Shown here: positions 19,654-60,984 of the stretch, piece after piece
How the letters are laid out: every line of letters starts with the position of its first letter
Position numbering within the stretch: the first letter of the stretch is position 1
Assembly: GCA_012797845.1 (NCBI GenBank)
Contig: JAAZOH010000025.1
Span: 3,767 to 67,766 of the forward strand
Direction of reading: 5' to 3'
Origin: Candidatus Beckwithbacteria bacterium
GTDB lineage: Bacteria; Patescibacteriota; Microgenomatia; UBA1400; UBA1449
Length of the DNA: 64,000 bases
Notes under the pieces: model-generated
What the model was told of the DNA's origin: nothing
Seen by the model: the letters and a program-made list of their open reading frames with translations, nothing else
Database searches by the model: none
Made by a program: the position numbers and the translations under genes

Positions 19654-19661
19654 ATTTTGAA

Positions 19662-47444: not shown

Positions 47445-48383
47445 ATGAAAGATAATTTTTGGCAAAATAAAAGAGTTTTAATTACCGGTGCTCACGGCTT
47501 TTTAGGTAGCCACTTAGTAAGGCAGCTGAAAAAACTAAAACCTAGGCAGTTGCGAATTCCTACTTCTAAAGAACTGGATCTGACTCAAAATCAAAATTGT
47601 ATCAAGGCCGTTGAAAACATTGATCTAGTCATTCATTTAGCAGCCAAGGTTGGCGGCATTGGTTTTAACCAACAATATCCTGGAACTTTGTTTTATGACA
47701 ATTTGGTGATGGGTGCTCATTTGATGGAAGCAGCCCGAAAAGCTGGGGTCAAAAAATTTGTGGCCCTTGGTACCATTTGCGCGTATCCAAAATTTACACC
47801 AATTCCTTTTAAAGAGGAAAATTTGTGGAATGGCTATCCTGAAGAAACCAATGCTCCCTATGGTTTGGCTAAAAAAATGCTGTTAGTTCAAGCTCAGGCC
47901 TATCGTCAACAATACAGCTTTAATGCTATTTTCTTATTACCCGTTAATTTGTATGGCCCTGGTGATAATTTTGATCCCAAATCTTCCCATGTCATTCCAG
48001 CTCTTATAAAAAAATTTATTGATGCTAAAGAAAGTGGCAAAAAAACTGTGACTATTTGGGGAACTGGTAACCCTACTCGGGAATTTTTGTATGTTGAAGA
48101 CGCTGCTAAAGGGATTATTTTGGCCAGTGAAAAATACAACAAAGCTGATCCGGTCAATCTAGGAAGCAGTAATGAGATTTCTATCAGAGCGTTGGTTGAA
48201 CTCATTCAGGAACTAACAGAGTTTAAAGGCCAAATTATTTGGGATAAGACAAAGCCAGACGGTCAGCCTAGACGTAAACTGGATATTTCAAAAGCCAAAA
48301 CTGAGTTTGGCTTTGAGGCTTCTACTGATTTTAAAAAGGGACTTAAAAAAACTATTGAATGGTATCAAAAATATGGTAGATAA
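47445..48383 (+). CDS. fcl: GDP-L-fucose synthase (GDP-4-keto-6-deoxy-D-mannose 3,5-epimerase/4-reductase)
   Basis: [63 protein letters not shown]. Matches E. coli Fcl closely over its length. Confidence 0.8.
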
Positions 48384-49191
48384 AATTACAATAATTAAAC
48401 CTCAACAAGGTTTTATTTCTATAAATTTCAAAGAGCTTTGGAGATATCGGGAACTACTATTAGCCCTAATGATAAGAGACATTAAGGTGCGATATAAACA
48501 AACATACTTAGGGATAGCTTGGGCCATCATGCAACCATTTACTCAGATGGTTGTGTTTAGCTTCTTTTTTGGTAAACTGGCAAAAATTCCTTCGGATGGA
48601 GTTCCTTATCCCATCTTCTCGTATTCTGGATTAATCCTTTGGACTTTTTTTAGCAATAGCATTAGTGCAGTTAGCAATAGCATGATAAACAGCTCTACTA
48701 TTATTAAAAAAGTATATTTTCCTAGGCTTATTTCTCCCATAGCTAGTTCTTTGGTTTATATAGTTGACTATATTATTGCTTTTACTATTTTGATCGGTTT
48801 AATATTTTTTTATAATTTCCCTTTACGCTTAGAATTTTTATTAATTCCCATGGTAGTATTTGGTACTTGGTTACTAAGCATTGGTGTTGGTTGTTTTCTA
48901 GCATCAATAAACATTCGTTATAGAGATGTTCGTTATGCTTTGCCGTTTTTTATTCAACTTCTTTTATACATTACGCCTGTCATTTACCCTGCATCAGTAG
49001 CTGGGCAATTTGAATGGATCGTCAATATAAATCCAATGACTGGATTTATGGAGCTTCATCGTTCTCTAATTTTGGGATTACCCATTAAAATCAATCAAAT
49101 TATAATTTCACTTATAATTACAATAGTCTTTTTAGTAATTGGATTACTGACATTCAAAAAAATGGAAAAAAACATTGTTGATATTGTTTAA
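48373..49191 (+). CDS. wzm: ABC-2 type polysaccharide export permease (Wzm/TagG/KpsM-like)
   Basis: 6-TM ABC-2 permease pattern ([26 protein letters not shown]). Start moved to the ATG at 48373 (MVDKIT), which overlaps the fcl stop. Confidence 0.7.
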
Positions 49192-49193
49192 TT

Positions 49194-50435
49194 ATGAAGA
49201 AGGATTTAGCAATTCAAGTTAGCCAATTAAGCAAAAAGTATTTAATTGATACTTTTCATCATTCGCCTCCTGTTCCCCAAAATACATTATCTATTTTAAA
49301 AACCAATCTTTTTAATAAAAACAAAACTGAGATTTTTTGGGCTTTAAAAAATATTAATTTTAAGATTAAAAAAGGTGAAATTGTTGGTATTGTGGGTGCT
49401 AATGGAGCTGGAAAATCTACGCTTTTAAAGATTTTATCCCAAATAGTGGAGCCTACTTCAGGTGAAGTGAAACTTAGAGGTAAAATTTCTTCCTTGTTAG
49501 AGGTTGGCACTGGATTTAACCCTGAATTAACCGGAAGAGAAAACATATATCTAAATGGTGCCATTTTAGGCATGAGCCGCAAAGAAATTGAGAGAAAGTT
49601 CGATAACATAATTGACTTTAGTGGTGTAAAAAAATTTTTAGATGTGCCGATCAAAAGATATTCATCTGGAATGCAAGTAAGATTAGCTTTTTCTGTAGCA
49701 GCCCACCTTGATTCAGATATTTTACTTATTGATGAAGTGCTTGCAGTCGGAGATGTGGAATTTCAAAAAAAATGTTTAGGAAAAATTGATGATATTTCTA
49801 AAAACGAAAGTCGAACAGTTTTGTTTGTTAGTCACAATATTGGCATAGTTAAAAGATTATGCAATCGAATCATCTTACTAGAAAATGGAAAAGTAAAACT
49901 TGATGGCTCAAGCGACGACGCTATTGAGGAGTATTTCAAAGTAGATCATACTCCCACTGAAGGCAAGATTAATTTAAGTAGCGTTCCTAGAAGAGACAAT
50001 CTGGTAAAAGCTATTACTTCATGTTGGTTTCAGTCTCTTGAAGGGAAAAGTAAAACTGTTTTTGCCATGGGTAAGCCAATGCAGATTTGCTATCATTTCA
50101 AATTAAATAAATCATATCCTGATCTTAATTTTACCTGTATGATTTTTAATATATACGGGGATAGAGTAACTACTTTATCAACCTTTCTTAATCAAAATAA
50201 GGTTTACAACAATATTAAAGAAGGAACAGTAATATTTAACGTCCCTTGTTTGCGATTAACTCCTGGTGCTTACAAAATAAGTTTATACCTTTTAGACAAA
50301 ATTGGTAACTCTATAGATCGTACAGAAATGGCAGCAGAATTTAAAGTGATGCCAAACAATATCTTTTCATCTATATATACGTTTTCATCTGGTCATGGTT
50401 TTCTTTACTTAGATGCTACAATCGATGTGGTATGA
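49194..50435 (+). CDS. wzt: ABC transporter ATP-binding protein Wzt with a C-terminal carbohydrate-binding extension
   Basis: Walker A GANGAGKST, signature SSGMQVRLAF, Walker B ILLIDE. About 170 extra C-terminal residues are predicted beta-rich, as in Wzt proteins that recognise a terminal glycan cap. Confidence 0.75.
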   Translation: MKKDLAIQVSQLSKKYLIDTFHHSPPVPQNTLSILKTNLFNKNKTEIFWALKNINFKIKKGEIVGIVGANGAGKSTLLKILSQIVEPTSGEVKLRGKISSLLEVGTGFNPELTGRENIYLNGAILGMSRKEIERKFDNIIDFSGVKKFLDVPIKRYSSGMQVRLAFSVAAHLDSDILLIDEVLAVGDVEFQKKCLGKIDDISKNESRTVLFVSHNIGIVKRLCNRIILLENGKVKLDGSSDDAIEEYFKVDHTPTEGKINLSSVPRRDNLVKAITSCWFQSLEGKSKTVFAMGKPMQICYHFKLNKSYPDLNFTCMIFNIYGDRVTTLSTFLNQNKVYNNIKEGTVIFNVPCLRLTPGAYKISLYLLDKIGNSIDRTEMAAEFKVMPNNIFSSIYTFSSGHGFLYLDATIDVV

Positions 50436-51529
50436 ATGATACTCATTTAAAATCAATTTTAATCACTGGTGGTACCGGCACCTTTGGCAGATCTTTTGCT
50501 AAAACTGTTTTAGAAAACTATCCCCATATAGAGAAAGTGGTTATCTTTTCCAGAGATGAGTTTAAACAGTTTGAAATGTCAAATCTAGACTGGTGCCAAA
50601 AACATCAAAAACGCTTACGTTTCTTTGTCGGCGACGTTCGTGATAAAGACAGGCTTTTGCGAGCTTTTTCTGGAATTGATGTGGTGGTTCATGCCGCTGC
50701 TCTAAAACAAATCCCTAGCTGTGAATATAATCCATTTGAAGCCATTAAAACTAATGTTTGGGGAGCGCAAAATGTTATCGAAGCCGCATTGGATTGCAAA
50801 GTCAAAAGAGTGGTTGCTCTTAGTACAGATAAAGCCTGTTCACCTATCAACCTTTATGGTGCCACCAAACTATGTAGCGATAAGCTCTTTATTTCAGCTA
50901 ATTCTTATGCAGGTTTACAAGACACAAGATTTGCTGTGGTTCGCTATGGCAATGTAACTGGTAGCCGTGGCTCTCTAATTCCCTTTTTCCAAAAACTTGT
51001 TGAAGCTAAAGCTGACTCTATGCCTATTACCGATGAGCGGATGACCCGTTTTTGGCTCAATATCCATGAAGCGGTAGATTTGGTCTTACTGGCACTAAAC
51101 AATACCTTAGGTGGTGAAATTTTTGTACCTAAAATTCCTTCAGTAAAGATTACTGACATTGCCAAAGCCATTGCTCCTCATATACCCATAAAAATAATTG
51201 GCATTAGACCTGGCGAGAAAATCCATGAAAAGATGATTAGTATTGATGATGCCCGCAATACCATCGAGTTTGACAACTATTTTGTGATTCAACCTGATTT
51301 AAATTTATCTTGGGCTAAAAGAACTAAAGCTGGGCTAAAAGGAACAAAAGTATCACCCGATTTTGAATACCATAGTGGTAATAATACCGACTGGCTAAAT
51401 GTAGATCAAGTCAGAAAATTGATAAAAAAACTAAACCCCGAAAACGCTAATTCTAACAGAAATTTAAACGATAAAGTTACAATGAATAATCCCCAAAACG
51501 TAACTATCAATATTTACGAGTCAAAATAA
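50432..51529 (+). CDS. pseB: UDP-N-acetylglucosamine 4,6-dehydratase (inverting), PseB/FlaA1-like
   Basis: Strong similarity to Cj1293/HP0840 over its length: ILITGGTGTFG, FFVGDVRDKDRL, HAAALKQIP, NPFEAIKTNVWGAQNV, LSTDKACSPINLYGATKL, RYGNVTGSRGSLIPFF, PITDERMTRFW. Confidence 0.85.
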   Translation: MNDTHLKSILITGGTGTFGRSFAKTVLENYPHIEKVVIFSRDEFKQFEMSNLDWCQKHQKRLRFFVGDVRDKDRLLRAFSGIDVVVHAAALKQIPSCEYNPFEAIKTNVWGAQNVIEAALDCKVKRVVALSTDKACSPINLYGATKLCSDKLFISANSYAGLQDTRFAVVRYGNVTGSRGSLIPFFQKLVEAKADSMPITDERMTRFWLNIHEAVDLVLLALNNTLGGEIFVPKIPSVKITDIAKAIAPHIPIKIIGIRPGEKIHEKMISIDDARNTIEFDNYFVIQPDLNLSWAKRTKAGLKGTKVSPDFEYHSGNNTDWLNVDQVRKLIKKLNPENANSNRNLNDKVTMNNPQNVTINIYESK

Positions 51530-51554
51530 AAAATAAAAAATGAAAAGTTGAAGT

Positions 51555-52412
51555 TTAAGCTAACTCTTCTAAAGCTTTGTTAATTATAATAGAATGTGTT
51601 TCCGCTCCAGATAAAATCTCTCCTTTGTCATTGAAACACAATTGCTTAGCTACTTCATATTGTTTACGAGCTTCTTCAGCATTTCCTTGAGCTCCCGCAA
51701 TTCTACCAAGAGATATGTGAGCATTTCGTTGATTATGAACATCTCCAATTTTTTCAAATCCTCCCAGTGCCTTCACTTGATATCCAGTAGCCTGATCATA
51801 ACCTTCAAGTTTTTCATAAGCTACTCCAAGTAGCTGTAGCGTCCTGTTATAGATTGCTTTATTTACCTCATTATCTGGATCTTGCTCAAGGACTGTCTGT
51901 CCATTTTCTAAACCTTTTTTATAGTACTTAATAGCATCTTCAATTCCTACGTCCTCTTGAACCCAAAGGCCAATCTCATTAAAGGCTTTGCTTATTTCGA
52001 TACAGGGTTCAGGAGAAGTAGCTAAAATTTTTTCTATTTCATCAGCCATCCTACGAGATCCAACTATATCTTTGCTAAAGGGATGTGATTTTTGAGGTCT
52101 ATCGCCAGTTCTAAAGAGGTAAAGTAGCCCAGCTTTAGCATTTAATAAAGCTGGAATATTACCTGTTTTTGCAGCATTGTATTCTGCAGCTGCTAGTACC
52201 ATTTCTGCTTCCGCATAATTGGCTTGCATGGTTAGAGCCAATCCTCGTTCTAACATAGGGTAAGGATTACCTACTGAATCATGGGAATAGCATGGAGGAG
52301 TAGAGCTCAAAACTTCTTCATACGCCCCGACTCGATTTAAGCCTGCAAGCTCTGCAATATAGTGGTCTAAAGTAAAGTTTTCTGGAGTAGAAAAAAGTTC
52401 CTTTTTTCCCAT
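51555..52412 (-). CDS. Hypothetical soluble protein (285 aa, helical/TPR-like by composition)
   Basis: The only minus-strand gene in the plus block. Inserted between pseB and pseC, it ends convergently 25 bp from pseB. No family recognised. Confidence 0.35.
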   Translation of the reverse strand: MGKKELFSTPENFTLDHYIAELAGLNRVGAYEEVLSSTPPCYSHDSVGNPYPMLERGLALTMQANYAEAEMVLAAAEYNAAKTGNIPALLNAKAGLLYLFRTGDRPQKSHPFSKDIVGSRRMADEIEKILATSPEPCIEISKAFNEIGLWVQEDVGIEDAIKYYKKGLENGQTVLEQDPDNEVNKAIYNRTLQLLGVAYEKLEGYDQATGYQVKALGGFEKIGDVHNQRNAHISLGRIAGAQGNAEEARKQYEVAKQLCFNDKGEILSGAETHSIIINKALEELA

Positions 52413-52453
52413 ATTACTCTGAATTATAAAATAATTTACAAGAAAAGCAATTT

Positions 52454-53632
52454 TTGAAATATGATATGATCTACCTTGATCATATGAGCCAAAATAAATT
52501 TTCTTACGGTCGACAATCTATTTCCCAGAAAGACATAACTGCAGTTACCAAAGTTTTACAATCAAACTTTCTTACTCAGGGCCCAAGCATTAAAGAGTTT
52601 GAAGAAAAATTTGCCAGTTATTGTGAGACCAGATATGCAGTAGCAGTCTGCAATGGCACTGCTGCTCTTCACCTTGCAGTACTAGCCCTTGAGCTTGATT
52701 CCAGCTCAGAAGCTATCACTTCCCCCATGTCCTTTGCTGCTTCAGCTAATTGCGTTTTGTATGCAAGAGCCAAAATTAACTTTGCTGATATCGATCCATA
52801 CACTGGACTTATAGACCCAGCTGAATTAGCTAAAAAAGTAACCCCCAAAACTAAACTGTTGATTCCGGTCCACTATGCTGGCCAAGCTTGCAATATGGCT
52901 GCAATTGCCAAGCTAGCTAAAAAATACAAGCTCTACATTATTGAAGATGCAGCCCATGCTATTGGCAGCTCATACAAAAATAGGAAGATCGGCTCTTGCC
53001 AGTACAGTGACATGACTACCTTTTCTTTCCATCCCGTTAAAACTATTACTTCAGGTGAGGGCGGCATGATCACCACCAATAATAAAAAACTTTATGAAAA
53101 ACTGCTGATGCTCCGTACTCATGGCATTACCAAGCAAAATTTTGTCAGCAAACCAGATGGGAATTGGTACTACGAAATGCAAGCTTTGGGCTACAATTAC
53201 CGGCTAACCGATATTCAGGCTACTCTCGGACTTTCACAGCTGAGCCAAATCGAGAAGTTTAAAAAAAAGAGGTCAAAATTGGTAAACTTTTACGATAAAG
53301 CCTTTGCAAACGATCCCTGCTTTAAGGTTCTGGGCAAAGCTGCTAATTCTGATACTTGCTATCATCTTTACCCACTACTATTTCAATTTGATAAACTAAA
53401 AATTACAAAGCAACAGCTCTTTAAAGCTTTGCAAAAGAAGGGCTTATTTCTCCAGGTTCACTACATTCCCATCCATCTCCAACCCTACTACCAAAACTTA
53501 GGCTTTAAAAAAGGTGATTTCCCCAATGCTGAGCAATTTTATCAGCAAGAGTTGTCATTACCTCTATATGTTGACCTGACTATTCCTCAAGCCAAACAAG
53601 TTGTCAAAATTATTAAAGAACTAGCTCAATAA
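52454..53632 (+). CDS. pseC: PLP-dependent DegT/DnrJ/EryC1-family sugar aminotransferase, PseC-like
   Basis: About 390 aa with VCNGTAALHLAVLAL and the active-site lysine region FSFHPVKTITSGEGGMI. Position is directly after pseB. Confidence 0.7.
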   Translation: MKYDMIYLDHMSQNKFSYGRQSISQKDITAVTKVLQSNFLTQGPSIKEFEEKFASYCETRYAVAVCNGTAALHLAVLALELDSSSEAITSPMSFAASANCVLYARAKINFADIDPYTGLIDPAELAKKVTPKTKLLIPVHYAGQACNMAAIAKLAKKYKLYIIEDAAHAIGSSYKNRKIGSCQYSDMTTFSFHPVKTITSGEGGMITTNNKKLYEKLLMLRTHGITKQNFVSKPDGNWYYEMQALGYNYRLTDIQATLGLSQLSQIEKFKKKRSKLVNFYDKAFANDPCFKVLGKAANSDTCYHLYPLLFQFDKLKITKQQLFKALQKKGLFLQVHYIPIHLQPYYQNLGFKKGDFPNAEQFYQQELSLPLYVDLTIPQAKQVVKIIKELAQ

Positions 53633-53634
53633 CC

Positions 53635-54408
53635 ATGCACCAGATTGGCTTAAAACTTTGGTCAACCAATGACTTTTATGTAGAGGAGGCACAAAAACTT
53701 TTTAGCAAAAAAGTTTATAACTATATTGAGCTCTATACAGTCCCCGACTCATACGCCAAATTTTATCGAATCTGGCGAAACTTAAATATTCCCTATATCA
53801 TTCATGCTCCTCATTTTACCCATGGAGTTAATTTGGCCTCGAAGATAAACTTTAAAAAAAATATTGAGCTAATAGAAGAGGCTCAGCGTTTTGCCGATAC
53901 CCTAAAGGCAAAATATATCATTGTGCATCCGGGATGTAATGGCGATATCAAAGAAACTGCAAGGCAGCTAGGACAAATTGATGATTCAAGAATTCTAGTA
54001 GAAAATATGCCCTATTTAGGAATCGAAGACGGTATTATCTGTAACGGAAGTACCTATAATGAACTACAGTATGTTCTAAGTCATACTAACAAAGGCTTTT
54101 GTCTGGATATTCATCATGCCTTTAGTTCATCAGCCTATCATAAAATTGATCCCATTTCTTTTGTAAAAAAGTTATTAACGTTAAGACCAAGCATGTTTCA
54201 TTTGGCTGATAGCAAAACGACATATGTTAGAGATAAACATTTAAATATTGGCAAGGGCAATTTGCCAATTAAAGATATAATTAAACTAATACCAAACAAT
54301 AGCTTTATAAGCTTAGAAACAAAAAAGCAAACCATACAAAATCTTAATGTTTTTATTGAAGATGTTTCAATCATCAAAGAACTAGAAAATTATGATCAAA
54401 ATAAATAA
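53635..54408 (+). CDS. Sugar-phosphate isomerase/epimerase-like TIM-barrel protein (xylose isomerase-like fold)
   Basis: HAPHF...IIVHPG...CLDIHHAF...HLAD pattern of AP-endonuclease-2/xylose-isomerase-like TIM barrels. The assignment is weaker than for neighbouring genes. Confidence 0.4.
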   Translation: MHQIGLKLWSTNDFYVEEAQKLFSKKVYNYIELYTVPDSYAKFYRIWRNLNIPYIIHAPHFTHGVNLASKINFKKNIELIEEAQRFADTLKAKYIIVHPGCNGDIKETARQLGQIDDSRILVENMPYLGIEDGIICNGSTYNELQYVLSHTNKGFCLDIHHAFSSSAYHKIDPISFVKKLLTLRPSMFHLADSKTTYVRDKHLNIGKGNLPIKDIIKLIPNNSFISLETKKQTIQNLNVFIEDVSIIKELENYDQNK

Positions 54409-55438
54409 TCGCAAAATTGGAACTGACTACCCTCCTTATATCATCGCCGACCTTTCTGCAAACCATAATCAATCTTTAGATCGGGCATTAGAGATTGTGG
54501 AAAAAAGTCACGAAGCTGGTATTGATGCTTTAAAACTTCAAACATACACTGCCAGTTGTATGACACTAAATGTCAAAAAACCAAATTTTAAAATTTCAAA
54601 CAAAACCAAATTATGGAAAGGTGAATACCTCTACTCCTTATATAAAAAAGCTCCTATTCCATGGGAGTGGCATAAACCAATTATGCAAAAATGTAAAAAA
54701 TTAGGCCTTACTTGCTTTAGTACTCCGTTCAGTGAAAAAGGAGTAGATTTTTTAGAAAACTTGGATGTTCCATGTTATAAGGTTGCGTCTTTTGAAAATA
54801 TCCATATACCTCTACTGAAGAAAATTGCTAAAACAAAAAAGCCAGTTATTATATCTACAGGCATGGCTAATGTAACTGAACTGGGCGAAGCTATACAAAC
54901 GCTTAGGGAAAACGGATGCAGAGATGTAATACTTTTAAAATGTACAAGCACTTACCCTGCTGATGAAAGCGAATCAAACCTTAGAACTATTCCTCATATG
55001 AAAGACTTATTTAGCTGTGAGGTAGGGCTTTCAGATCACACCTTAGGTATTGGCGTTCCTTTGGCTAGTGTGGCTCTAGGTGCAACTGTAATTGAAAAGC
55101 ATATTACCTTGAGAAGAAAGGATGGTGGTTTCGACTCTACTTTTTCCCTAGAGCCAAAAGAAATGAAAAGCTTAGTCATTGAAAGTAGACGGGCTTGGAA
55201 AGCTTTGGGAAAAATCAGCTATGAATCGACAAAAAAAGAACAAGCTAGTTTACAATTCAAAAGATCAATTTATATAGCAAAAGATATGAGAAAAGGTGAA
55301 CAATTTACAAAGAAAAGTCTAAAAGTAATTCGTCCAGGATTTGGTCTAGCACCAAAATATTATGAACATGTTCTAGGTAAAAAAATTTCAAGAAATGTAT
55401 CAAAGGGGACACCTTTAAAATGGGAATATGTAAATTGA
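54392..55438 (+). CDS. pseI: Nonulosonic acid synthase (NeuB family; pseudaminic acid synthase PseI-like) with a C-terminal SAF domain
   Basis: YIIADLSANHNQSL (family IAEIGxNHNG), LKLQTY, and the C-terminal SAF segment KGEQFTKKSLKVIRPGFGL. Confidence 0.75.
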   Translation: MIKINNRKIGTDYPPYIIADLSANHNQSLDRALEIVEKSHEAGIDALKLQTYTASCMTLNVKKPNFKISNKTKLWKGEYLYSLYKKAPIPWEWHKPIMQKCKKLGLTCFSTPFSEKGVDFLENLDVPCYKVASFENIHIPLLKKIAKTKKPVIISTGMANVTELGEAIQTLRENGCRDVILLKCTSTYPADESESNLRTIPHMKDLFSCEVGLSDHTLGIGVPLASVALGATVIEKHITLRRKDGGFDSTFSLEPKEMKSLVIESRRAWKALGKISYESTKKEQASLQFKRSIYIAKDMRKGEQFTKKSLKVIRPGFGLAPKYYEHVLGKKISRNVSKGTPLKWEYVN

Positions 55439-55447
55439 TTAAAATTT

Positions 55448-56356
55448 ATGAATAAACAGAACTTAAACCAAATCAAGAAAATTTACGATCAAGGAGGTAA
55501 TATTATACAGTTTCTAAAAAAAGGAAATTCTTCTCAAGCTAATTCAGATGAAATGGTTTTAATTAGCTATGACTTTCAAAGTGGTTCTTACATAAAATAT
55601 GTACAAAGTAATCCAAAAGAGAAAGACCTCTATACAAAATCAATCGCAGCTGTAATTAACAATCTAAATGTAAAGTACGATTCAATTCTTGAAGCAGGAG
55701 TTGGTGAAGCAACTACTTTAGCAAGTCTTCTGCCTAAATTGAAAGCTAAACCCAAAGACACATATGGCTTTGATATTTCATGGTCAAGAATTAAATATGG
55801 TCAAGAGTATTTGAAAAAGAAAAGATTGTCGAAAGTGTTTTTGTTTGTAGGAGATCTATTCAATATACCAATTGCAGATAATGCAATAGATATTGTCTAT
55901 ACATCTCATTCTATCGAGCCTAATGGAGGCAAGGAAAAAGAAGCCTTAAAAGAACTGTATCGCATTACCAATAAATACCTAATTCTTTTAGAACCTGCCT
56001 ATGAACTTGCAGATAAAAAAGCTAGAGAAAGAATGGAACACCATGGTTATATTAAAAATCTATATTCAACTGCTAAATCCTTGAAATATAATGTTTTAGA
56101 CTACAAGCTATTTGATTACTATATAAACCCTCTTAATCCAACTGGTTTAATGATTATTAAAAAATCTCTACAAAATAAATTAACTAATAGTAAACCATTG
56201 CTCTGTCCTATAAGCAAAACTCCTCTGAGTTTTATAAGAGGTTCTTATTTTTCTAAAAAAGGTCTACTTGCTTACCCTATAATCGATAAGGTTCCTTGTT
56301 TGCTAAACGAAAACGCTGTTATAGCTACTCATTACCTGGACAGATTTACAAAGTAA
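55448..56356 (+). CDS. Probable SAM-dependent methyltransferase
   Basis: ILEAGVGEATTL glycine-rich motif I-like segment, and acidic motif II VFLFVGDLFNIP. Confidence 0.4.
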   Translation: MNKQNLNQIKKIYDQGGNIIQFLKKGNSSQANSDEMVLISYDFQSGSYIKYVQSNPKEKDLYTKSIAAVINNLNVKYDSILEAGVGEATTLASLLPKLKAKPKDTYGFDISWSRIKYGQEYLKKKRLSKVFLFVGDLFNIPIADNAIDIVYTSHSIEPNGGKEKEALKELYRITNKYLILLEPAYELADKKARERMEHHGYIKNLYSTAKSLKYNVLDYKLFDYYINPLNPTGLMIIKKSLQNKLTNSKPLLCPISKTPLSFIRGSYFSKKGLLAYPIIDKVPCLLNENAVIATHYLDRFTK

Positions 56357-56374
56357 TTAGAAAATTTATATTGC

Positions 56375-56902
56375 ATGAAAAAAGTAATTTTTTATGAACA
56401 ATTAGAGTTAAAAAGCTTTGTTGTTTTGACTAAAAATGAAAAACAATTAGTCTATCAATGGAGAAATAACCAAAAAATAAGTAAGTGGATGATTAATCAA
56501 AATAAATTTTCCTATACAGAACATCTTCGATTTATAAAAAAATTAGCAAAGGATAATAATAATTTTCACTGGCTTGTCCAAAACAAAATAGATAAAGAAT
56601 ATCTTGGAGTATGCAATTTAGTTAATATAGATAAAAAACATAAACATTGTTACTTGGGAATATACGTAAATCCTAGTTTGCAAAATAAAGGATATGGAAC
56701 TGACATTCTAAAAGTCTTAAAGCACATTGCTTACAATCTACTTAACATACATACCATAAAATTAGAAGTTTTTGAGCACAATAGCAGAGCCATTAATTTT
56801 TATAAAAAAAATGGTTTCAAAAAAGAAGGTTTACTTAAAGATTACATTTTGATAAACAATAAGTGGCACAACCTTCTTCTCATGGGCCATTTCCCCAAAT
56901 AG
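56375..56902 (+). CDS. pseH: GNAT N-acetyltransferase PseH-like (UDP-4-amino-4,6-dideoxy-AltNAc N-acetyltransferase)
   Basis: Aligns by eye to C. jejuni PseH: QWRNNQKISKWM...EHLRFIKKL versus KWRNHPDINQFM...EHLRFLKKL, and a GNAT core. Confidence 0.7.
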   Translation: MKKVIFYEQLELKSFVVLTKNEKQLVYQWRNNQKISKWMINQNKFSYTEHLRFIKKLAKDNNNFHWLVQNKIDKEYLGVCNLVNIDKKHKHCYLGIYVNPSLQNKGYGTDILKVLKHIAYNLLNIHTIKLEVFEHNSRAINFYKKNGFKKEGLLKDYILINNKWHNLLLMGHFPK

Positions 56903-56904
56903 TT

Positions 56905-57780
56905 ATGAAAGGTGTTCAAAAATTAGCAATTGGTACTGCCAATTTTGGCTTGGACTATGGCATTAACAATGCTAACGGAAAACTTTCCTATATCCAAGTA
57001 GCTCAAATTTTAGATTTAGCTACTAAGTTAAAAATAAATTTTTTGGATACAGCCAGTGCCTATGGAAATAGTGAGCAAGTTTTAGGAAAATACCTCAGTA
57101 AAGCTAAAGCTAAAGATATACGTCTTATTTCAAAAGTCATTGTTGGGAGCCAAATAGATTTGGCTCAAGAATTAAAAAAATCATTGCAAAACTTGCATAA
57201 AAAGAAACTCTTTGGATATTTAATCCATAATTTTCAGGAGTTTAAGAAACATCCTGATATTTTCCAAGAGTTTCTTAGGCTAAAACAGCAAGGATTTGCA
57301 GAAAAAGTTGGCTTTTCTCTGTATTTCCCACAAGATCTTGAATTTTTGATCAAGCATAAAATCCAGTTTGATATTGTTCAGGTTCCGTATAATATTTTCG
57401 ATCAGCGCTTTGAACCATATTTTAAAAAACTAAAAGAAAATAAAGTTGAGATTCACTGCCGTTCCGTATTCCTTCAAGGCCTATTTTTTAAATCTACCAA
57501 AGAACTTAAGCCGCCATTAAATAAAGCTGCAACTAAACTTGAGTTTCTACAAAAAATTACAATACAACAGAAGATACCTCTTCAGACGCTTTGTTTGCAA
57601 TTTGTTGCTCTCAACCCTTTTATTGATAAAATAGTTATTGGTATTGATAGTATCAAGCAATTGCAGGAAAACGCAGATACTTTTATCCAACAAAAAAATG
57701 TGAAATATATATATAAAGAGTTGAAAAAGTTGAAAGTGGAAGATGAGAATATCATTTTGCCCTTCAATTGGAAAAAGTGA
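56905..57780 (+). CDS. Aldo/keto reductase family oxidoreductase
   Basis: LAIGTANFG...LDTASAYGNSEQVLGK is the AKR N-terminal signature. Start set at the ATG 3 nt after the pseH stop. Confidence 0.6.
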   Translation: MKGVQKLAIGTANFGLDYGINNANGKLSYIQVAQILDLATKLKINFLDTASAYGNSEQVLGKYLSKAKAKDIRLISKVIVGSQIDLAQELKKSLQNLHKKKLFGYLIHNFQEFKKHPDIFQEFLRLKQQGFAEKVGFSLYFPQDLEFLIKHKIQFDIVQVPYNIFDQRFEPYFKKLKENKVEIHCRSVFLQGLFFKSTKELKPPLNKAATKLEFLQKITIQQKIPLQTLCLQFVALNPFIDKIVIGIDSIKQLQENADTFIQQKNVKYIYKELKKLKVEDENIILPFNWKK

Positions 57781-58670
57781 AGCAATTAAAATTAGGAATC
57801 ATTGGTCTTAGCGAAGGGAATGGCCACCCTTACTCCTGGTCAGCAATTTTTAATGGCTTTAATAAAGCTGTTATGAAAACTTGTCCTTTTCCGGTTATTT
57901 ACGAATATTTGAGTAAGCAACGTTTTCCTAAAGATGCAATTGCTGGTGCCAAGGTAACCCATATTTGGACCCAAGACCTAAGCATTTCCCGACACATTGC
58001 CAAAGCCTCAAATATTGTAAATATTGTTACTGATTACCAAGATATGATTGGCCAAGTTGACGCTATCTTATTAGCTAGAGACGACTCGCAAAACCATTTG
58101 AAGATGAGCCGCCCTTTCTTGCAAGCCGGCTTACCCATTTACATTGATAAACCTCTGGCCACAACCATTGCTGAGGCTAAAAAAATGTACTCTTTAGAAC
58201 AGTATGCTGGCCAGATATTTACCTGTTCAGCTCTTGCCTATGCCAAAGAACTTACGCTAAGCCCAAAAAAATTGGATAGCTTTGGTCCAATACATTTTGT
58301 CAATGCTATCACTCCTAAGTACTGGGAAACCTACGCTGTTCATATTATTGAGCCAACTCTTAATCTTTTTAAAACTAAGACTAAACATATAAAATCAGCT
58401 TCAACCCATAAGTCAAAACAAATCACTACCACAAGCATTATTTGGGATTCTGGCTTAATAACCAACTTCAGTGCATTGGGTCAAAGTGCTACTCCAATCA
58501 AAATTGAGATCTATGGACAAAATAAATCTGAGGTGTTAGTCTTTAAAGATACTTTTTTTGCTTTTAAAAAAGCTTTGGAAGAATTTATTGCTATTATTAC
58601 TAAAAAAAAGAAACCTCAAAAAAAAGAAGACGTTTTGCATTTAATTTCAATAATTGAACAAGGGCTTTAA
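57768..58670 (+). CDS. Gfo/Idh/MocA-family NAD(P)-dependent oxidoreductase (PtmF-like position)
   Basis: LKLGIIGLSEGNGHPYSW is the Rossmann N-terminus typical of Gfo/Idh/MocA enzymes. Confidence 0.6.
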   Translation: MEKVKQLKLGIIGLSEGNGHPYSWSAIFNGFNKAVMKTCPFPVIYEYLSKQRFPKDAIAGAKVTHIWTQDLSISRHIAKASNIVNIVTDYQDMIGQVDAILLARDDSQNHLKMSRPFLQAGLPIYIDKPLATTIAEAKKMYSLEQYAGQIFTCSALAYAKELTLSPKKLDSFGPIHFVNAITPKYWETYAVHIIEPTLNLFKTKTKHIKSASTHKSKQITTTSIIWDSGLITNFSALGQSATPIKIEIYGQNKSEVLVFKDTFFAFKKALEEFIAIITKKKKPQKKEDVLHLISIIEQGL

Positions 58671-58671
58671 C

Positions 58672-59427
58672 ATGAAAAAAACTATTTTAATCACTGGTGG
58701 TACAGGCAAAATTGGCCAGGTCTTAACAAAGCATTTTTTAAAAAAGGACTACAAGGTAATCATTACTAGTAGAAATGAACAGCAGGCCTTAAAGCTTTTT
58801 GCTAACAGTAAAAATATACCAAATCTCAGCGTTATCGAGATTGACTTAAGAGCAGATAAAGCTATCAACCATGTGATCAGCTCTCTCGAAAAACTAAATG
58901 CAAAACCTTATGCTCTTATTCACTGTGCCCGAAATTTAGAAAGCCTCAAGTACTCACCGGACTTAGAAACTAGGATCAAAAATTGGCAAGCTGAGTATTT
59001 ACTGGATGTAGTTATACCCTATGAACTTTCACTGGCAGTTGCCAAAATGAAGGAATCGAAATTAACAAATGTGGTTACCATCTCTTCAATGTATGGTGTG
59101 GTTGCGGCCAATCCTCATCTTTATACTAATCCACAAATTCAGTCTCCTGTGCAATATAGTGTAGCCAAGGCTGCTCTTATCCATGCCACCAAAGAAATGG
59201 CCATAAGATTAAGTCCACAGAAAATAAAGGTTAACTGCATATCTTATGGAGGTATTGAGGGAAGGGCTGATGAGGATTTTAAAAAGAGATATGGAAAACT
59301 TTGCCCTATTGGTAGAATGCTTACTGAAGAGGAAATTATTAAGCCAGTTGAATTTCTGATTTCTAATAGCTCCACTGCTATGCAAGGCCATAATTTGATT
59401 GTAGATGGGGGCTGGTCTATATGGTAA
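58672..59427 (+). CDS. Short-chain dehydrogenase/reductase (SDR), PtmA-like
   Basis: TILITGGTGKIGQ glycine motif, and YSVAKAAL catalytic YxxxK. Confidence 0.7.
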   Translation: MKKTILITGGTGKIGQVLTKHFLKKDYKVIITSRNEQQALKLFANSKNIPNLSVIEIDLRADKAINHVISSLEKLNAKPYALIHCARNLESLKYSPDLETRIKNWQAEYLLDVVIPYELSLAVAKMKESKLTNVVTISSMYGVVAANPHLYTNPQIQSPVQYSVAKAALIHATKEMAIRLSPQKIKVNCISYGGIEGRADEDFKKRYGKLCPIGRMLTEEEIIKPVEFLISNSSTAMQGHNLIVDGGWSIW

Positions 59428-60107
59428 GCAAAGTAGCTATTATCCCTGCCAGAAAAGGCTCGAAACGAATTCCTCTAAAAAACATAGTCAACTTTCATGG
59501 TAAGCCTCTCATAGCCTGGACCATAGGAGCAGCATTAAAATCAAAAGTGTTTGATGCTGTTTATGTTAGTACTGATAGTCAGAAAATCGCTAACATAAGC
59601 GAAAAATATGGAGCTAAGGTCCCTTTCCTACGTACAAAATATACAGATGATAACTCTTCGGTAAGCAGTGTGATTATTGACTTTTTGGAAAATTTAAAAA
59701 AGAAAAAAAGCAAGGAATTTGATGTAGTTTTTTCCCTAATGCCCAATTGCCCGCTTAGAACTGGCCAAGATATCATACGAGCCGATAAAAATTGTACTGC
59801 CAAAAAGGCTAGTTTTCAACTCAGCTGTTTTGAATTTGGATTTATGAATCCATGGTGGGCATTTACTCTAGATAAAAACTGCAGACCAGAGTATATTCAT
59901 AAAAGCGCTCTTAAAAAACGATCTCAGGATTTATCTAAATTATTTTGTCCCAGCGGTGCTATTTGGATTGCAAATATTAAAGCTTTGCAAAAAAGCAAAA
60001 CCTTCTATGGCCCCAATCATATTTTTTATAAATTGGGTTGGAAGAATGCAATTGATATCGATAGTAAAGAGGATTTAGAACTAGCTAAAAGCTTCTCAAA
60101 AAATTAA
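59421..60107 (+). CDS. pseF: CMP-nonulosonic acid synthetase (acylneuraminate cytidylyltransferase family; PseF/NeuA-like)
   Basis: VAIIPARKGSKRIPLKN N-terminal signature of CMP-sugar cytidylyltransferases. Confidence 0.7.
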   Translation: MVSKVAIIPARKGSKRIPLKNIVNFHGKPLIAWTIGAALKSKVFDAVYVSTDSQKIANISEKYGAKVPFLRTKYTDDNSSVSSVIIDFLENLKKKKSKEFDVVFSLMPNCPLRTGQDIIRADKNCTAKKASFQLSCFEFGFMNPWWAFTLDKNCRPEYIHKSALKKRSQDLSKLFCPSGAIWIANIKALQKSKTFYGPNHIFYKLGWKNAIDIDSKEDLELAKSFSKN

Positions 60108-60108
60108 T

Positions 60109-60984
60109 ATGTTTTCTTTTAATAGTAAGTATCTCTCAAAACAATCAGCTAATATTTTATTTCTTTATTTAAAAAGTTTTTTAAATAAAGAATATACTTT
60201 TTCGAGCGAGGACCTTTTTACTCAACTACACCAACTATATTGGCAAACACCTAAAGTGGAAGTTATTAAAAAAGATAAAAATCTTCAACTACTAAAGGTT
60301 AAAAAACTGAAATTCTACTGGCCAACAAATATTCCCTTACAAGGCCTGGAATGGATTTATAATGAAGTATTTTATCCATATAAAAAAAATCCTGCTTCTT
60401 ACGATCACCCCTTATTTGATTTTAAAAAAGTAAACTGGGTCATAGATGCTGGTGCAAGTGAGGGTTTTTATACAAATTTTGCCTTTAAAAACAAAGCTAA
60501 AAAAGTAATAGCTATTGAACCCCTTTTAATTTTAAAAGAAAGCTTGCAACAGACTTTTAAAAAGGAGGTAAAAAAAAGACAGCTCGAAATTATTTCTAAA
60601 AGCTTGGGAAGAAAAAAAGGAAAGGCATATTTGAAATTTGAAAATAATTGTCTATATAACTCGAGTGTCGATGATAAAAAAGATAAAAATTATCAGAAAA
60701 CAAAAATTACTACTATTGATTCAGTTGTAAAAACAAATAAATTAAAGGGTAAGGGGATTATAAAAATGGATATAGAAGGTGGGGAAATAGATGCCCTAAA
60801 AGGTGCAGTCGATTGTTTACAGAGGAATAAACCTAAATTAGCTATAGCTGTATATCATAATCAACAAAACTACCACAAGTGCAAGGAAGTGATTTTCAAG
60901 GCTAACCGCAACTATCGGATTGAAGCTAGAGGAATGTATTGCTGGAAAACTCCGCCTAGACCTTTTATGTTATTTGCCTATTAA
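60109..60984 (+). CDS. FkbM-family methyltransferase
   Basis: VIDAGASEGFYT...IKMDIEGGEIDALKGA, the FkbM/Methyltransf_21 signature. Confidence 0.65.
   Translation: MFSFNSKYLSKQSANILFLYLKSFLNKEYTFSSEDLFTQLHQLYWQTPKVEVIKKDKNLQLLKVKKLKFYWPTNIPLQGLEWIYNEVFYPYKKNPASYDHPLFDFKKVNWVIDAGASEGFYTNFAFKNKAKKVIAIEPLLILKESLQQTFKKEVKKRQLEIISKSLGRKKGKAYLKFENNCLYNSSVDDKKDKNYQKTKITTIDSVVKTNKLKGKGIIKMDIEGGEIDALKGAVDCLQRNKPKLAIAVYHNQQNYHKCKEVIFKANRNYRIEARGMYCWKTPPRPFMLFAY

Follow-up and report, generated by a model that had tools for sequence, protein, structure and literature searches.

A pseudaminic acid-type gene cluster of a Candidatus Beckwithbacteria bacterium with a TIM-barrel metalloenzyme as proposed substitute for PseG

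How can a bacterium make a pseudaminic acid-type sugar if the gene for the UDP-sugar hydrolase PseG is missing from its cluster? This question is raised by a stretch of 64,000 nucleotides from a Candidatus Beckwithbacteria bacterium, here called the window. All 11 open reading frames that a first-pass annotation had placed in the cluster are real; ten lie on the plus strand and one, the TPR gene, on the minus strand (Table 1). The five genes that it described as extra to the pathway and interleaved with it, encoding a TIM-barrel protein, a methyltransferase, an aldo/keto reductase (AKR), a Gfo/Idh/MocA oxidoreductase (GFO) and an SDR, were borne out by their Pfam domains. For the AKR gene the identity held and the start did not, since the frame begins with a GTG at 56863 and position 56905 is an alternative start inside it. 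The start of pseB is overlapped by the stop of the Wzt-like gene, and overlaps also connect the TIM-barrel and PseI genes (17 nt), AKR and GFO (13 nt), GFO and SDR (17 nt), and SDR and the PseF-like gene (7 nt). The genes abut or overlap, which fits a single transcription unit spanning 52454 to at least 63840. Homologues of the TPR gene were sought in the other loci compared and none was found.

Table 1. Positions of the cluster genes and their neighbours in the window.
Product	Coordinates	Strand	Evidence
Wzm-like ABC-2 permease, polysaccharide exporter	48307..49191	+	PF01061 ABC2_membrane, E 1.6e-16
Wzt-like ATPase with C-terminal glycan-binding domain	49194..50435	+	PF00005 and PF14524 Wzt_C, E 2e-13
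PseB, inverting UDP-GlcNAc 4,6-dehydratase	50432..51529	+	TIGR03589, 500.6 bits (cut-off 407.75)
TPR protein, between pseB and pseC	51555..52412	-	PF13424 TPR_12, E 6.5e-9
PseC aminotransferase	52454..53632	+	TIGR03588, 506.4 bits (cut-off 423.5)
Endonuclease-IV-like TIM-barrel metalloenzyme, proposed PseG substitute	53635..54408	+	PF01261 (AP_endonuc_2), fold, Zn ligands, synteny, fusions, PseG exclusion
PseI, pseudaminic acid synthase (NeuB + SAF)	54392..55438	+	TIGR03586, 495.0 bits (cut-off 340.25)
Class I SAM methyltransferase, accessory tailoring	55448..56356	+	PF13649/PF08241
PseH, GNAT N-acetyltransferase	56375..56902	+	TIGR03585, 140.1 bits (cut-off 93.1)
AKR, cassette gene 1 of 4	56863..57780	+	PF00248 Aldo_ket_red, E 1e-31
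GFO, ElaA-like role	57768..58670	+	PF01408
SDR oxidoreductase, ElaC/EpaB-like role	58654..59427	+	PF13561
CMP-nonulosonate synthetase, cassette-specific subtype	59421..60107	+	PseF model 185.9 bits, below cut-off 205.7
FkbM-family methyltransferase	60109..60984	+	PF05050 / TIGR01444
539-aa protein, probably KpsS/Capsule_synth-like nonulosonic-acid transferase	60994..62613	+	weak PF05159 match, E 0.011
GT4 glycosyltransferase	62617..63840	+	PF13692

The core enzymes were identified with NCBIfam equivalog models, each scored against its own cut-off. PseB, PseC, PseI and PseH passed, so that four of the five pathway enzymes named at first sight stand as named; the fifth is PseF-like. Both the NeuB and the SAF domain of PseI were found by Pfam. 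The synthase falls into the Pse clade and not into a Neu5Ac or Kdo clade, as it passes TIGR03586 and fails the NeuB_NnaB model (309.8 bits, cut-off 399.65). The PseI proteins of PseG-type loci (477–486 bits) and those of loci with the TIM-barrel gene, below called TIM-type loci (300–512 bits), are equally similar to the PseI of the window, which argues for the same synthase substrate in both types of locus.

The reported lack of PseG was confirmed in the window and in the rest of the contig. Pfam scans detected no Glyco_tran_28 or Epimerase_2 domain among the approximately 50 open reading frames of the window, and phmmer searches with three annotated PseG proteins against all of its six-frame open reading frames gave no match at E<1e-4. 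The remaining 6 kb of the contig, like the 64-kb window, contain neither a GT28/PseG nor a NeuC-type gene; the search thus covered the 70,369-bp contig.

The TIM-barrel protein belongs to a conserved family encoded in 257 species-representative genomes. Among the best 80 loci, PseI or PseB plus PseC were found within 10 kb of the gene in 51, most commonly in the order PseB-PseC-(PseF)-TIM-(GNAT)-PseI and with TIM mostly just upstream of PseH/PseI. Of 54 long members of the family, 49 combine TIM with a PseH-type GNAT in one protein, the order of the two domains being reversed in two cases; a cytidylyltransferase is the fusion partner in one member and a formyltransferase in another. The same GNAT domain is carried by 37 of 63 PseG open reading frames in a PseI-anchored sample. 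PseG-like open reading frames were present in 1 of 52 Pse loci with TIM versus 62 of 79 PseI loci without it (Fisher p = 2.6e-20, for loci that are not phylogenetically independent), and the PseI-anchored set held no case of TIM and PseG together. Locus L043 contains TIM plus a weak PseG-like frame (61 bits). Both genes are missing from three PseB/PseC/PseI loci, so that there may be other solutions. A PseG probe retrieved 98 plasmid records across phyla; the TIM-barrel protein had no match among plasmid records.

Comparison of gene orders shows that TIM takes the slot of PseG: a Margulisiibacteriota locus (L003) reads PseB-PseC-AKR-CTPtransf-AminotranIII-TIM-GNAT-NeuB and a Pseudosulfitobacter locus (L091) pseB-pseC-AKR-GNAT-hyp-AminotranIII-pseG::GNAT-pseI, and the GNAT fusions are shared. 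A minimal cluster, in a Melainabacteria genome (L061), consists of PseB, an RmlD-like reductase, a NeuB-like protein, TIM and PseF; its only gene without a role is TIM and its only step without an enzyme is UDP release. Approximately 28 of the 80 family members stand alone in unrelated neighbourhoods (Mucispirillum, Spirochaetota, Brevinematales). They are scattered among the Pse-linked members in the family tree, so that they would either work with Pse genes located at scattered sites or have a different function.

The AF2 model of the TIM-barrel protein (pLDDT 95.2) has MJ1311 and endonuclease IV (Endo IV) as its nearest folds, in agreement with the profile search; TM scores against Endo IV (Nfo) and its relatives MJ1311 and TTHB071 were 0.65–0.74. 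All nine Zn ligands of Escherichia coli Nfo align to residues that are invariant in 41 of 41 family members. The family has the five ligands specific to Endo IV in addition to the E/D/H/E set of sugar epimerases. As MbnB-type multinuclear iron oxidases and MJ1311 share this ligand set, the metal site alone does not imply a hydrolytic role. Together with synteny, the exclusion of PseG and the parallel PseH fusions, it backs the earlier proposal of this protein as candidate for the missing step. Judging from comparative genomics, the protein is most likely a metal-dependent hydrolase of UDP-sugars that acts in place of PseG without being its orthologue. A literature search found no paper on this family.

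Other functions have to be weighed against a hydrolase. Pfam places the protein in the xylose-isomerase-like TIM barrel family and the solved structure closest to it is labelled D-tagatose 3-epimerase-like; the protein might thus be an isomerase or epimerase tailoring an intermediate, with UDP removed by PseG or another hydrolase elsewhere in a genome of which 70 kb are visible. We consider this rather unlikely, because the five Endo-IV-specific ligands are retained beyond the epimerase set, 51 of 52 TIM-type loci have no PseG within 10 kb while it adjoins PseI in most others, the cluster L061 offers no second candidate for UDP release, and the likeness of PseI in both types of locus does not indicate an altered hexose. 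A nucleotide-sugar pyrophosphatase yielding UMP and a sugar-1-phosphate would be compatible with the conserved trinuclear phosphoesterase site, as the data fix neither phosphorus as the target. This activity would require a separate phosphatase, but the TIM-type clusters have no phosphatase gene in common and L061 has no gene to spare, making it improbable. Such an enzyme would occupy the same position in the pathway as the proposed hydrolase, differing in the bond cleaved and in the need for a partner.

The weak match to PF05114 MbnB_TglH_ChrH (E 2e-4) and the MbnB structures among the fold neighbours would fit a multinuclear non-haem iron oxidase (MNIO-like) that oxidizes a pathway intermediate. 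Known MNIOs, however, have peptide substrates and partner proteins, and no such partner is encoded here; moreover, Endo IV and MJ1311 are nearer in sequence and fold and an oxidase would leave the exclusion of PseG unexplained, so that we regard this function as very unlikely. Finally, relatives are annotated as deoxyribonuclease IV by JGI and some stand alone in the genome, as would suit an ordinary DNA-repair endonuclease IV lying in the operon by chance. This is hardly credible: the protein scores 25–35 bits with Nfo models whose cut-offs are 130–333, synteny is kept in 51 loci of many phyla, and the fusions to PseH, formyltransferase and cytidylyltransferase cannot be due to chance.

The only cytidylyltransferase of the window is the last gene of a four-gene cassette, AKR-GFO-SDR-cytidylyltransferase, which recurs as a unit in five other Pse loci (L001/2, L008, L015, L028, L037). 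It matches the cytidylyltransferases of these cassette loci with 250–273 bits and ordinary PseF proteins with 85–125 bits. On a Halorussus plasmid (L176), the trio CTP-SDR-GFO lies within an archaeal Leg-type cluster, and in Marinovum (L092) an AKR domain is fused to a cytidylyltransferase. The suggested resemblance of GFO and SDR to PtmF and PtmA gave way to better parallels, ElaA/ElaC and EpaA/EpaB: the SDR reached 153.6 bits with PRK09186 and 111.7 bits with PtmA (cut-off 350), both below cut-off.

Because the cassette recurs as a unit and holds the only cytidylyltransferase, its oxidoreductases do not belong to another operon and a modified product, as anticipated, is likely rather than plain Pse5Ac7Ac. 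Since the cassette matches the published C8-epimerisation modules ElaABC and EpaAB, the cluster probably makes a CMP-pseudaminic acid that is epimerised and perhaps also methylated. Plain CMP-Pse5Ac7Ac, with the oxidoreductases and the methyltransferase serving other sugars, would be conceivable, since the whole window forms a single long glycan island rich in unrelated sugar genes and AKR is also found in PseG-type clusters that are otherwise ordinary. It is nevertheless improbable, as the extra genes overlap one another and the only cytidylyltransferase, the unit is intact in the five other loci with a matching cytidylyltransferase subtype, and the published Ela and Epa modules, whose domain sets are the same, do alter the sugar. 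Homologues of the methyltransferase at 55448 were found in Pse clusters of the TIM type (L017, 282 bits) and of the PseG type (L102, 329 bits). AKR is likewise present in clusters with PseG; both genes are accessory modules that do not depend on the exchange of the hydrolase.

The neighbouring genes suggest export of the sugar on a polymer. The Wzm-like permease scored 73 bits with a galactan Wzm/RfbD model, below its cut-off. The 539-aa protein has homologues in Pse loci of the TIM type (L028, 251 bits; L003, 103 bits with a precomputed PF05159 assignment; L015, L001 and L059), in L028 next to a homologue of the FkbM gene, and the GT4 gene has a homologue at the same place in L001 (335 bits). 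A wall polymer, S-layer or pilin had been envisaged as acceptor; Wzm, Wzt with its Wzt_C domain, FkbM, the KpsS-like protein and GT4 point to a polymer exported by an ABC transporter and not to pilin.

We propose, with a probability of approximately 0.58, that the operon converts UDP-GlcNAc into a CMP-activated 5,7-diacetamido pseudaminic-type nonulosonic acid for an ABC-exported glycan, with the TIM-barrel protein as hydrolase and epimerisation by the cassette. Based on their equivalog-level matches, PseB, PseC and PseH would form UDP-2,4-diacetamido-2,4,6-trideoxy-L-altrose. The TIM-barrel protein, instead of the GT-B hydrolase PseG, would then remove UDP at its trinuclear metal site, presumably by attack on the sugar-phosphate ester to give free sugar and UDP, or alternatively UMP and sugar-1-phosphate. 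PseI would condense the free sugar with PEP, and the cassette would activate the acid with CMP and, in the manner of ElaABC and EpaAB, invert a centre that bears a hydroxyl group, most probably C8, by oxidizing it and re-reducing it face-selectively. The resulting 8-epi-Pse-type sugar, possibly methylated by the methyltransferase at 55448, would be attached to the polymer by the KpsS-like protein and GT4 and exported by Wzm/Wzt.

The canonical CMP-pseudaminic acid pathway of Campylobacter jejuni and Helicobacter pylori, PseB-PseC-PseH-PseG-PseI-PseF, shares with the window PseB, PseC, PseH and PseI at the equivalog level and a PseF-like cytidylyltransferase. The window differs by the absence of PseG, the five added genes and a cytidylyltransferase of the cassette subtype. 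Its order of putative hydrolase, acetyltransferase and synthase equals pseG-pseH-pseI of Bacillus plasmids. Whereas the canonical pathway serves flagellin glycosylation, this cluster is linked to Wzm/Wzt export, and we know of no flagellation in the host lineage. PseG (GT28-like; UDP-2,4-diacetamido-2,4,6-trideoxy-beta-L-altropyranose hydrolase) and the TIM-barrel protein are proposed to perform the same step, adjoin PseH/PseI and are repeatedly fused to PseH-type GNATs, but a TIM barrel and the double Rossmann fold of PseG are unrelated. PseG is reportedly metal-independent and said to cleave the C1–O bond; the TIM-barrel protein, unlike PseG, has a conserved trinuclear metal site and is predicted to cleave P–O. 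With Nfo, MJ1311 and TTHB071 it shares the barrel fold and the ligands. It lies far below the Nfo family cut-offs, occurs among sugar-pathway genes and in fusions with them, and its presumed substrate is a nucleotide sugar and not DNA.

ElaABC, comprising ElaA (Gfo/Idh/MocA), ElaB (CTP-transferase) and ElaC (SDR), epimerises CMP-Leg5,7Ac2 at C8 in Acinetobacter baumannii KL49 and Vibrio vulnificus (PMC13656337). The window has the same adjacent trio, likewise with the only CTP-transferase of the locus, and the best PDB matches of its SDR and cytidylyltransferase, 6UH2 and 6IFD, are the models used to solve ElaC and ElaB (PMC13656337). This likeness concerns domain sets and PDB entries, and the Ela cluster is of the Leg type, whereas that of the window is of the Pse type with an additional AKR. 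The prophage pair EpaA (CTP_transf_3 plus AKR) and EpaB (SDR) converts Pse5Ac7Ac to 8-epi-Pse5Ac7Ac beside a full PsaA-F set including PseG and PseF (PMC12053666). The two-enzyme schemes of Ela and Epa leave the third oxidoreductase of the window without a place. Cassette proteins share 23–26% identity with an Epa-like pair of Marinovum pMaD10. EpaA/EpaB and the window have the same domain set (CTP_transf_3, Aldo_ket_red, adh_short_C2), in Epa acting on pseudaminic acid; AKR and cytidylyltransferase are fused in EpaA but are separate genes in the window, with GFO and SDR between them.

The gene cluster of the window comprises ten co-directional ORFs and one opposite-strand gene. PseB, PseC, PseH and PseI, which the first-pass annotation had recognised from the sequence alone, all score above the cut-offs of the respective NCBIfam equivalogs, and the synthase could be placed with the Pse type, since it stays below the cut-off for the N-acetylneuraminate synthase clade (NeuB_NnaB). 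The naming of the cytidylyltransferase as PseF holds as far as the best match is concerned, with a score that lies under the equivalog cut-off. Pfam searches confirmed the five extra genes as an AP_endonuc_2 TIM-barrel protein (hereafter TIM), a class I methyltransferase, an aldo/keto reductase (AKR), a Gfo/Idh/MocA oxidoreductase (GFO) and an SDR; a PtmA-like nature of the SDR was not borne out by the profile score. Most genes of the operon adjoin their neighbours or overlap them by 7-17 nt, in keeping with a single transcription unit. A TPR protein gene, for which no homologue was found among related loci, is inserted between pseB and pseC and splits the wzt-coupled pseB from the remaining operon. 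A tRNA scan found no tRNA genes.

Coordinates of the features discussed, with profile scores where available (L numbers denote comparison loci from other genomes or plasmids)
Feature	Locus	Position (strand)	Remarks
Nonulosonic acid gene cluster	window	50432-60107	
PseB	window		TIGR03589, 500.6 bits (cut-off 407.75)
PseC	window		TIGR03588, 506.4 bits (cut-off 423.5)
PseH	window		TIGR03585, 140.1 bits (cut-off 93.1)
PseI	window		TIGR03586, 495.0 bits (cut-off 340.25); NeuB_NnaB, 309.8 bits (cut-off 399.65)
TIM	window	53635-54408 (+)	PF01261 (xylose-isomerase-like TIM barrel), 59.8 bits (cut-off 31.1), superfamily level only
Methyltransferase	window	55448	
AKR	window	56863-57780	
GFO	window	57768-58670	
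SDR	window	58654-59427	PtmA profile NF050062, 111.7 bits (cut-off 350)
Cytidylyltransferase	window	59421-60107	PseF profile TIGR03584, 185.9 bits (cut-off 205.7)
GFO-SDR-cytidylyltransferase	window	57768-60107	
TPR protein gene	window	51555-52412 (-)	
Proposed transcription unit	window	52454 to at least 63840	
Glycan island	window	1-64000	nearly all of this range
Wzx-like flippase	window	23540-24796	export route 1
Wzy_C polymerase	window	12319-13932	export route 1
Wzm/Wzt	window	48307-50435	export route 2
DUF4012 protein	window	1840-4419	
PMT_2/GT-C paralogues	window	10835-12316, 28169-29782, 31033-32499, 32549-34063, 34035-35633, 41193-42797, 42801-44375	
Three long ORFs	window	17024-19653 and 21283-22722	447, 429 and 479 aa; no Pfam family
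Lowest-GC segment	window	18001-20000	GC 0.283
TIM-anchored locus with PseG-like ORF	L043	4908-8341	Myxococcales MAG
AKR/cytidylyltransferase/class-III aminotransferase module	L003	7056-10000	Margulisiibacteriota
Same module	L091	9013-13823	Pseudosulfitobacter
Same module	L101	2552-5439	
Minimal cluster	L061	6935-11451	Melainabacteria
Cytidylyltransferase-SDR-Gfo/Idh/MocA	L176	7477-9984	Halorussus caseinilyticus plasmid
TIM without Pse genes within 10 kb	L016, L019, L022, L029, L032-L036, L038, L044, L046-L048, L050, L055, L058, L060, L066, L068, L069, L073, L076, L078, L079, L083		

The absence of PseG from the window, likewise noted in the first-pass annotation, was upheld by two kinds of search. 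Pfam analysis of about 50 window ORFs detected many GT2, GT4 and GT-C transferases and neither a GT28 domain nor a NeuC-type Epimerase_2. Phmmer searches of all six-frame ORFs of the window with three PseG proteins annotated by PGAP on plasmids of Agrobacterium, Peribacillus and Bacillus cereus gave no match at E < 1e-4. That such probes work across phyla is seen from one of them, which by itself retrieved 98 plasmid records ranging from Bacillus to Azospirillum, Sinorhizobium, Acinetobacter and Klebsiella. Nor is a PseG gene located just outside the window, as the 6 kb beyond it on the 70,369-bp metagenomic contig, of which the window takes up about 3753-67752, encode a UDP-sugar dehydrogenase, a methyltransferase, MraZ and RsmH.

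TIM had been put forward as a candidate for the missing hydrolase. Its sequence is identical to that of an NCBI protein from a Candidatus Beckwithbacteria MAG. A word-indexed search with the protein returned 305 homologues, the best 120 of which come from many phyla and are 42-54% identical to it over the full length; about ten of these 120 are 400-aa fusions with a GNAT domain. By exhaustive profile search the family comprises 1416 clusters (50% identity) at E ≤ 1e-3 and 410 at E ≤ 1e-30, and no match was obtained among 72,556 plasmids. Long members of at least 380 aa account for 54 of the 266 family proteins analysed. A GNAT domain is present in 49 of them, twice in reverse order (GNAT-TIM), and one cytidylyltransferase::TIM and one TIM::formyltransferase fusion also occur among the 54. 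An HMM built from the TIM-fused GNAT domains matches annotated PseH proteins (E 1e-15 and 2e-13) as well as PseH of the window (E 2e-11). Two family representatives (P0155 and P0166) carry a DUF559 (Vsr-like endonuclease) domain inside or fused to the barrel; either a mobile insertion or an artefact of assembly might account for this. Members currently go by the names 'TIM barrel protein', 'sugar phosphate isomerase' or 'deoxyribonuclease IV', and a search of the literature available to us found nothing on the family and no paper that links it to nonulosonic acids.

A profile scan with one genome per species identified 257 genomes with a TIM relative, including candidate-phyla lineages, Melainabacteria, Planctomycetota, Elusimicrobia and gut Mucispirillum, and the 10-kb flanks of the best 80 loci were analysed. 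PseI or PseB together with PseC was present in 51 of these 80 loci, most commonly in the order PseB-PseC-(PseF)-TIM-(GNAT)-PseI. In about ten loci the TIM stop codon and the start of the GNAT gene lie within roughly 40 nt of each other, and in three a GNAT::PseI fusion follows TIM. Only one of the best 80, from a Myxococcales MAG, contains a PseG-like ORF, a weak match of 61.7 bits that is encoded on the other strand, beside a PseI gene. As a control, 80 metagenomic loci were selected by PseI (53-61% identical to PseI of the window) and not by TIM. PseG was found in 62 of them, TIM in one, both in none and neither in 17; the single TIM locus (L112) encodes a TIM::GNAT fusion immediately upstream of PseI. 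Fourteen of the 17 loci with neither gene also lacked PseB and PseC matches, many being short contigs or having PseI at the locus edge. The remaining three (L101, L125 and L135) contain PseB, PseC and PseI, and just upstream of PseI they carry unassigned ORFs of 459-929 aa, which may represent divergent fusions of PseG or a third way of carrying out the hydrolase step. For both sets combined, PseG occurs in one of 52 TIM-containing Pse loci and in 62 of 79 loci without TIM (Fisher p = 2.6e-20, for loci that are neither phylogenetically independent nor sampled alike).

PseG and TIM also show parallels. Fusions of PseG to a GNAT domain make up 37 of the 63 PseG ORFs of the control set, and the fused domain is of the same PseH type that is attached to TIM elsewhere; a plasmid-borne 'pseG' of Pseudosulfitobacter (514 aa) likewise consists of Glyco_tran_28_C and GNAT. 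The cluster from this plasmid (L091), pseB-pseC-AKR-GNAT-hyp-AminotransferaseIII-pseG::GNAT-pseI, and that of a Margulisiibacteriota genome (L003), PseB-PseC-AKR-CTPtransferase-AminotransferaseIII-TIM-GNAT-NeuB, are otherwise collinear and differ in having pseG::GNAT or TIM. PseI proteins from PseG-type loci (477-486 bits) and TIM-type loci (300-512 bits) are equally similar to PseI of the window, suggesting that the synthase receives the same substrate in both. An AKR, cytidylyltransferase and class-III aminotransferase module follows pseC in loci of either type and might supply the sugar with another amino group. In L091 the latter two appear to be fused (677 aa, the N-terminus weakly matching PseF), as is perhaps also the case for a 684-aa ORF in L101.

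A minimal cluster of five genes in Melainabacteria (L061) encodes PseB (528 bits), an RmlD-like reductase, a NeuB-like synthase scoring under both the PseI and the NeuB cut-offs, TIM and PseF (296 bits). Here removal of UDP is the only step without a gene and TIM the only gene without a step. Similar clusters are present in L057, L065 and L072; L065 has two full-scoring TIM paralogues, and L057 and L061 show only a weak second TIM-like match (66-69 bits). As no aminotransferase is encoded in the minimal cluster, its product may be a 7-hydroxy (5-acetamido-3,5,9-trideoxy) nonulosonic acid. At about 28 of the 80 TIM loci, in Mucispirillum, several Spirochaetota, Brevinematales and a few others, TIM stands alone amid unrelated genes. 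A neighbour-joining tree places these members in lineage-specific groups interspersed among the Pse-linked ones and not in a deep clade of their own, which led us to reject a separate subfamily and fits scattered Pse genes as they are found in Campylobacter and Helicobacter.

The family alignment contains eleven invariant His, Asp and Glu residues. A PDB profile search with the family ranked MJ1311 first (E 5e-12), followed by endonuclease IV structures, and the AlphaFold model of TIM (pLDDT 95.2) has MJ1311, Endo IV, TTHB071 and MbnB as nearest folds (TM 0.65-0.74). In the structural ranking Endo IV and MJ1311 also came first (E 1e-11 to 1e-13), and D-psicose/D-allulose epimerases appeared only from rank 32 downwards (E about 1e-6), so that the closest structural relatives are not ketose 3-epimerases or isomerases of proven activity. 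We aligned E. coli Nfo with 41 family members. The columns of its zinc ligands H69, H109, E145, D179, H182, H216, D229, H231 and E261 are invariant in 41 of 41, and correspond to H60, H98, E123, D158, H161, H189, D200, H202 and E228 in TIM of the window. Endo IV, nuclease P1 and B. cereus phospholipase C use trinuclear zinc sites of this type to hydrolyse phosphodiesters whose leaving group is an alcohol. In a UDP-sugar, the sugar-1-O-P bond fits that description, and TIM would therefore release the free hexose by metal-dependent P-O cleavage; PseG is metal-independent and cleaves the C-O bond.

A DNA repair function was also considered. TIM is not a true Nfo, as it scores only 25-35 bits against cut-offs of 129.65 (TIGR00587) and 244-333 (PRK01060) and members of its family are fused to sugar-pathway domains, and the genomic context argues against cleavage of DNA at AP sites. 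A NeuC-like hydrolysing epimerase was rejected for lack of homology. Cleavage of the UDP-sugar at the alpha-phosphate is an alternative, but this would require a phosphatase, and none is encoded in the clusters. MNIO enzymes have the same ligand pattern, so that an oxidative, MNIO-like activity is conceivable, if only remotely. On the evidence of PseG exclusion, parallel GNAT fusions, synteny and the Nfo-type ligands, the proposal that TIM substitutes for PseG gains support, and we put the probability that it performs the UDP-sugar hydrolase step at roughly 0.65. The initial observation is thus real and its interpretation supported. The chances are only slightly in favour of the wider view that the family constitutes a class of nucleotide-sugar hydrolases not described so far. 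In this view its members would be trinuclear-metal phosphoesterases with the endonuclease IV fold; they would free, through P-O cleavage, the hexose needed for nonulosonic acid synthesis, would have taken the place of the GT-B enzyme PseG in many bacterial species and would also serve the 7-hydroxy, non-aminated pathway of Melainabacteria-type clusters.

Sugars of the pseudaminic type act as surface determinants in many bacteria, and in genome surveys the pathway is judged by its six canonical genes. Should TIM perform the PseG step, surveys that score PseG as missing or the pathway as incomplete would be misleading for about 257 species-level genomes and about 410 clusters at 50% identity. 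A metal-dependent TIM barrel would then represent a new catalytic solution for nucleotide-sugar hydrolysis, and a function would be available for a family with such disparate names.

A single glycan island takes up almost all of the window. Besides two export routes, it encodes about a dozen GT2/GT4 enzymes, an initiating transferase of the Bac_transf type and a DUF4012 protein. The 64 kb further contain seven paralogues of the PMT_2/GT-C type (ArnT/PMT-like membrane glycosyltransferases), one of which also matches DUF2142, and two of three long ORFs without a Pfam family (447 and 429 aa) lie in the lowest-GC segment of the window. The Pse genes are preceded by wzm and a wzt gene encoding a Wzt_C glycan-binding domain. 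Downstream of the cassette formed by AKR, GFO, SDR and cytidylyltransferase lie genes for an FkbM methyltransferase, a 539-aa protein with a weak Capsule_synth/KpsS signature (E 0.011) and a GT4. Homologues of the 539-aa protein, for which a PDB sequence search was uninformative, come after the Pse genes in L028, L003, L015, L001 and L059. The acid may be added, possibly as a terminal residue, to a polymer exported by the ABC transporter.

The cassette recurs as an intact four-gene unit, sometimes block-inverted, in L001/L002, L008, L015, L028 and L037. The window has no second cytidylyltransferase, and the one present is closer to those of the cassette loci (250-273 bits) than to ordinary PseF (85-125 bits). 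The trio of GFO, SDR and cytidylyltransferase is found in five other Pse loci and in an archaeal legionaminic-type cluster on the Halorussus plasmid with neuB, neuC, formyltransferases and deacetylases, whose GFO is 27.5% identical to that of the window over 99% of its length (E 4e-43). AKR alone, directly after pseC, is common in PseG-type loci. The methyltransferase has homologues in L102, between pseB and pseC (329 bits), and in L017, where the gene lies between pseC and TIM (282 bits); its PDB sequence search gave nothing informative. AKR and the methyltransferase are accessory genes, independent of the hydrolase swap.

Two published modules for C8 epimerisation of nonulosonic acids offer a comparison. 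For A. baumannii KL49, crystal structures, docking and deletion mutants led to the proposal that ElaA (Gfo/Idh/MocA) oxidises the C8 hydroxyl of CMP-Leg5,7Ac2 and that ElaC (SDR) re-reduces it to the 8-epimer, ElaB being the CTP-transferase (PMC13656337). The entries 6UH2 and 6IFD, which served in solving the structures of ElaC and ElaB, are the top PDB matches of the SDR and the cytidylyltransferase of the window. Like ElaABC, the window has these three genes adjacent in a nonulosonic acid locus, the likeness residing in the domain set and the shared nearest PDB entries. The prophage enzymes EpaA (CTP_transf_3 and Aldo_ket_red) and EpaB (SDR) convert Pse5Ac7Ac to 8-epi-Pse5Ac7Ac (PMC12053666). 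EpaA is a fusion encoded beside an adh_short_C2 SDR, whereas the window has all three domains in separate genes. An EpaA-like fusion with an adjacent SDR lies beside pseI on a Marinovum plasmid (L092), at 23-26% identity to the window proteins, and the phage collection gave no usable match to EpaA/EpaB. The recurrence of the cassette and the Ela and Epa parallels suggest a portable module that activates nonulosonic acids and edits their stereochemistry, and C8 epimerisation is our best guess for its effect. A Pse-type pathway with a TIM hydrolase, an epimerising cassette and export on a polymer together has somewhat better than even odds; if so, bacteria with small genomes and an episymbiotic lifestyle would be shown to invest in sialic-acid-like glycans of edited stereochemistry. 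Compared with known systems, the pathway itself is of a known kind and the cassette is a new, Ela/Epa-like member in a Pse context, and the proposed substitution of an endonuclease-IV-like TIM-barrel enzyme for PseG is widespread and, as it seems, undescribed.
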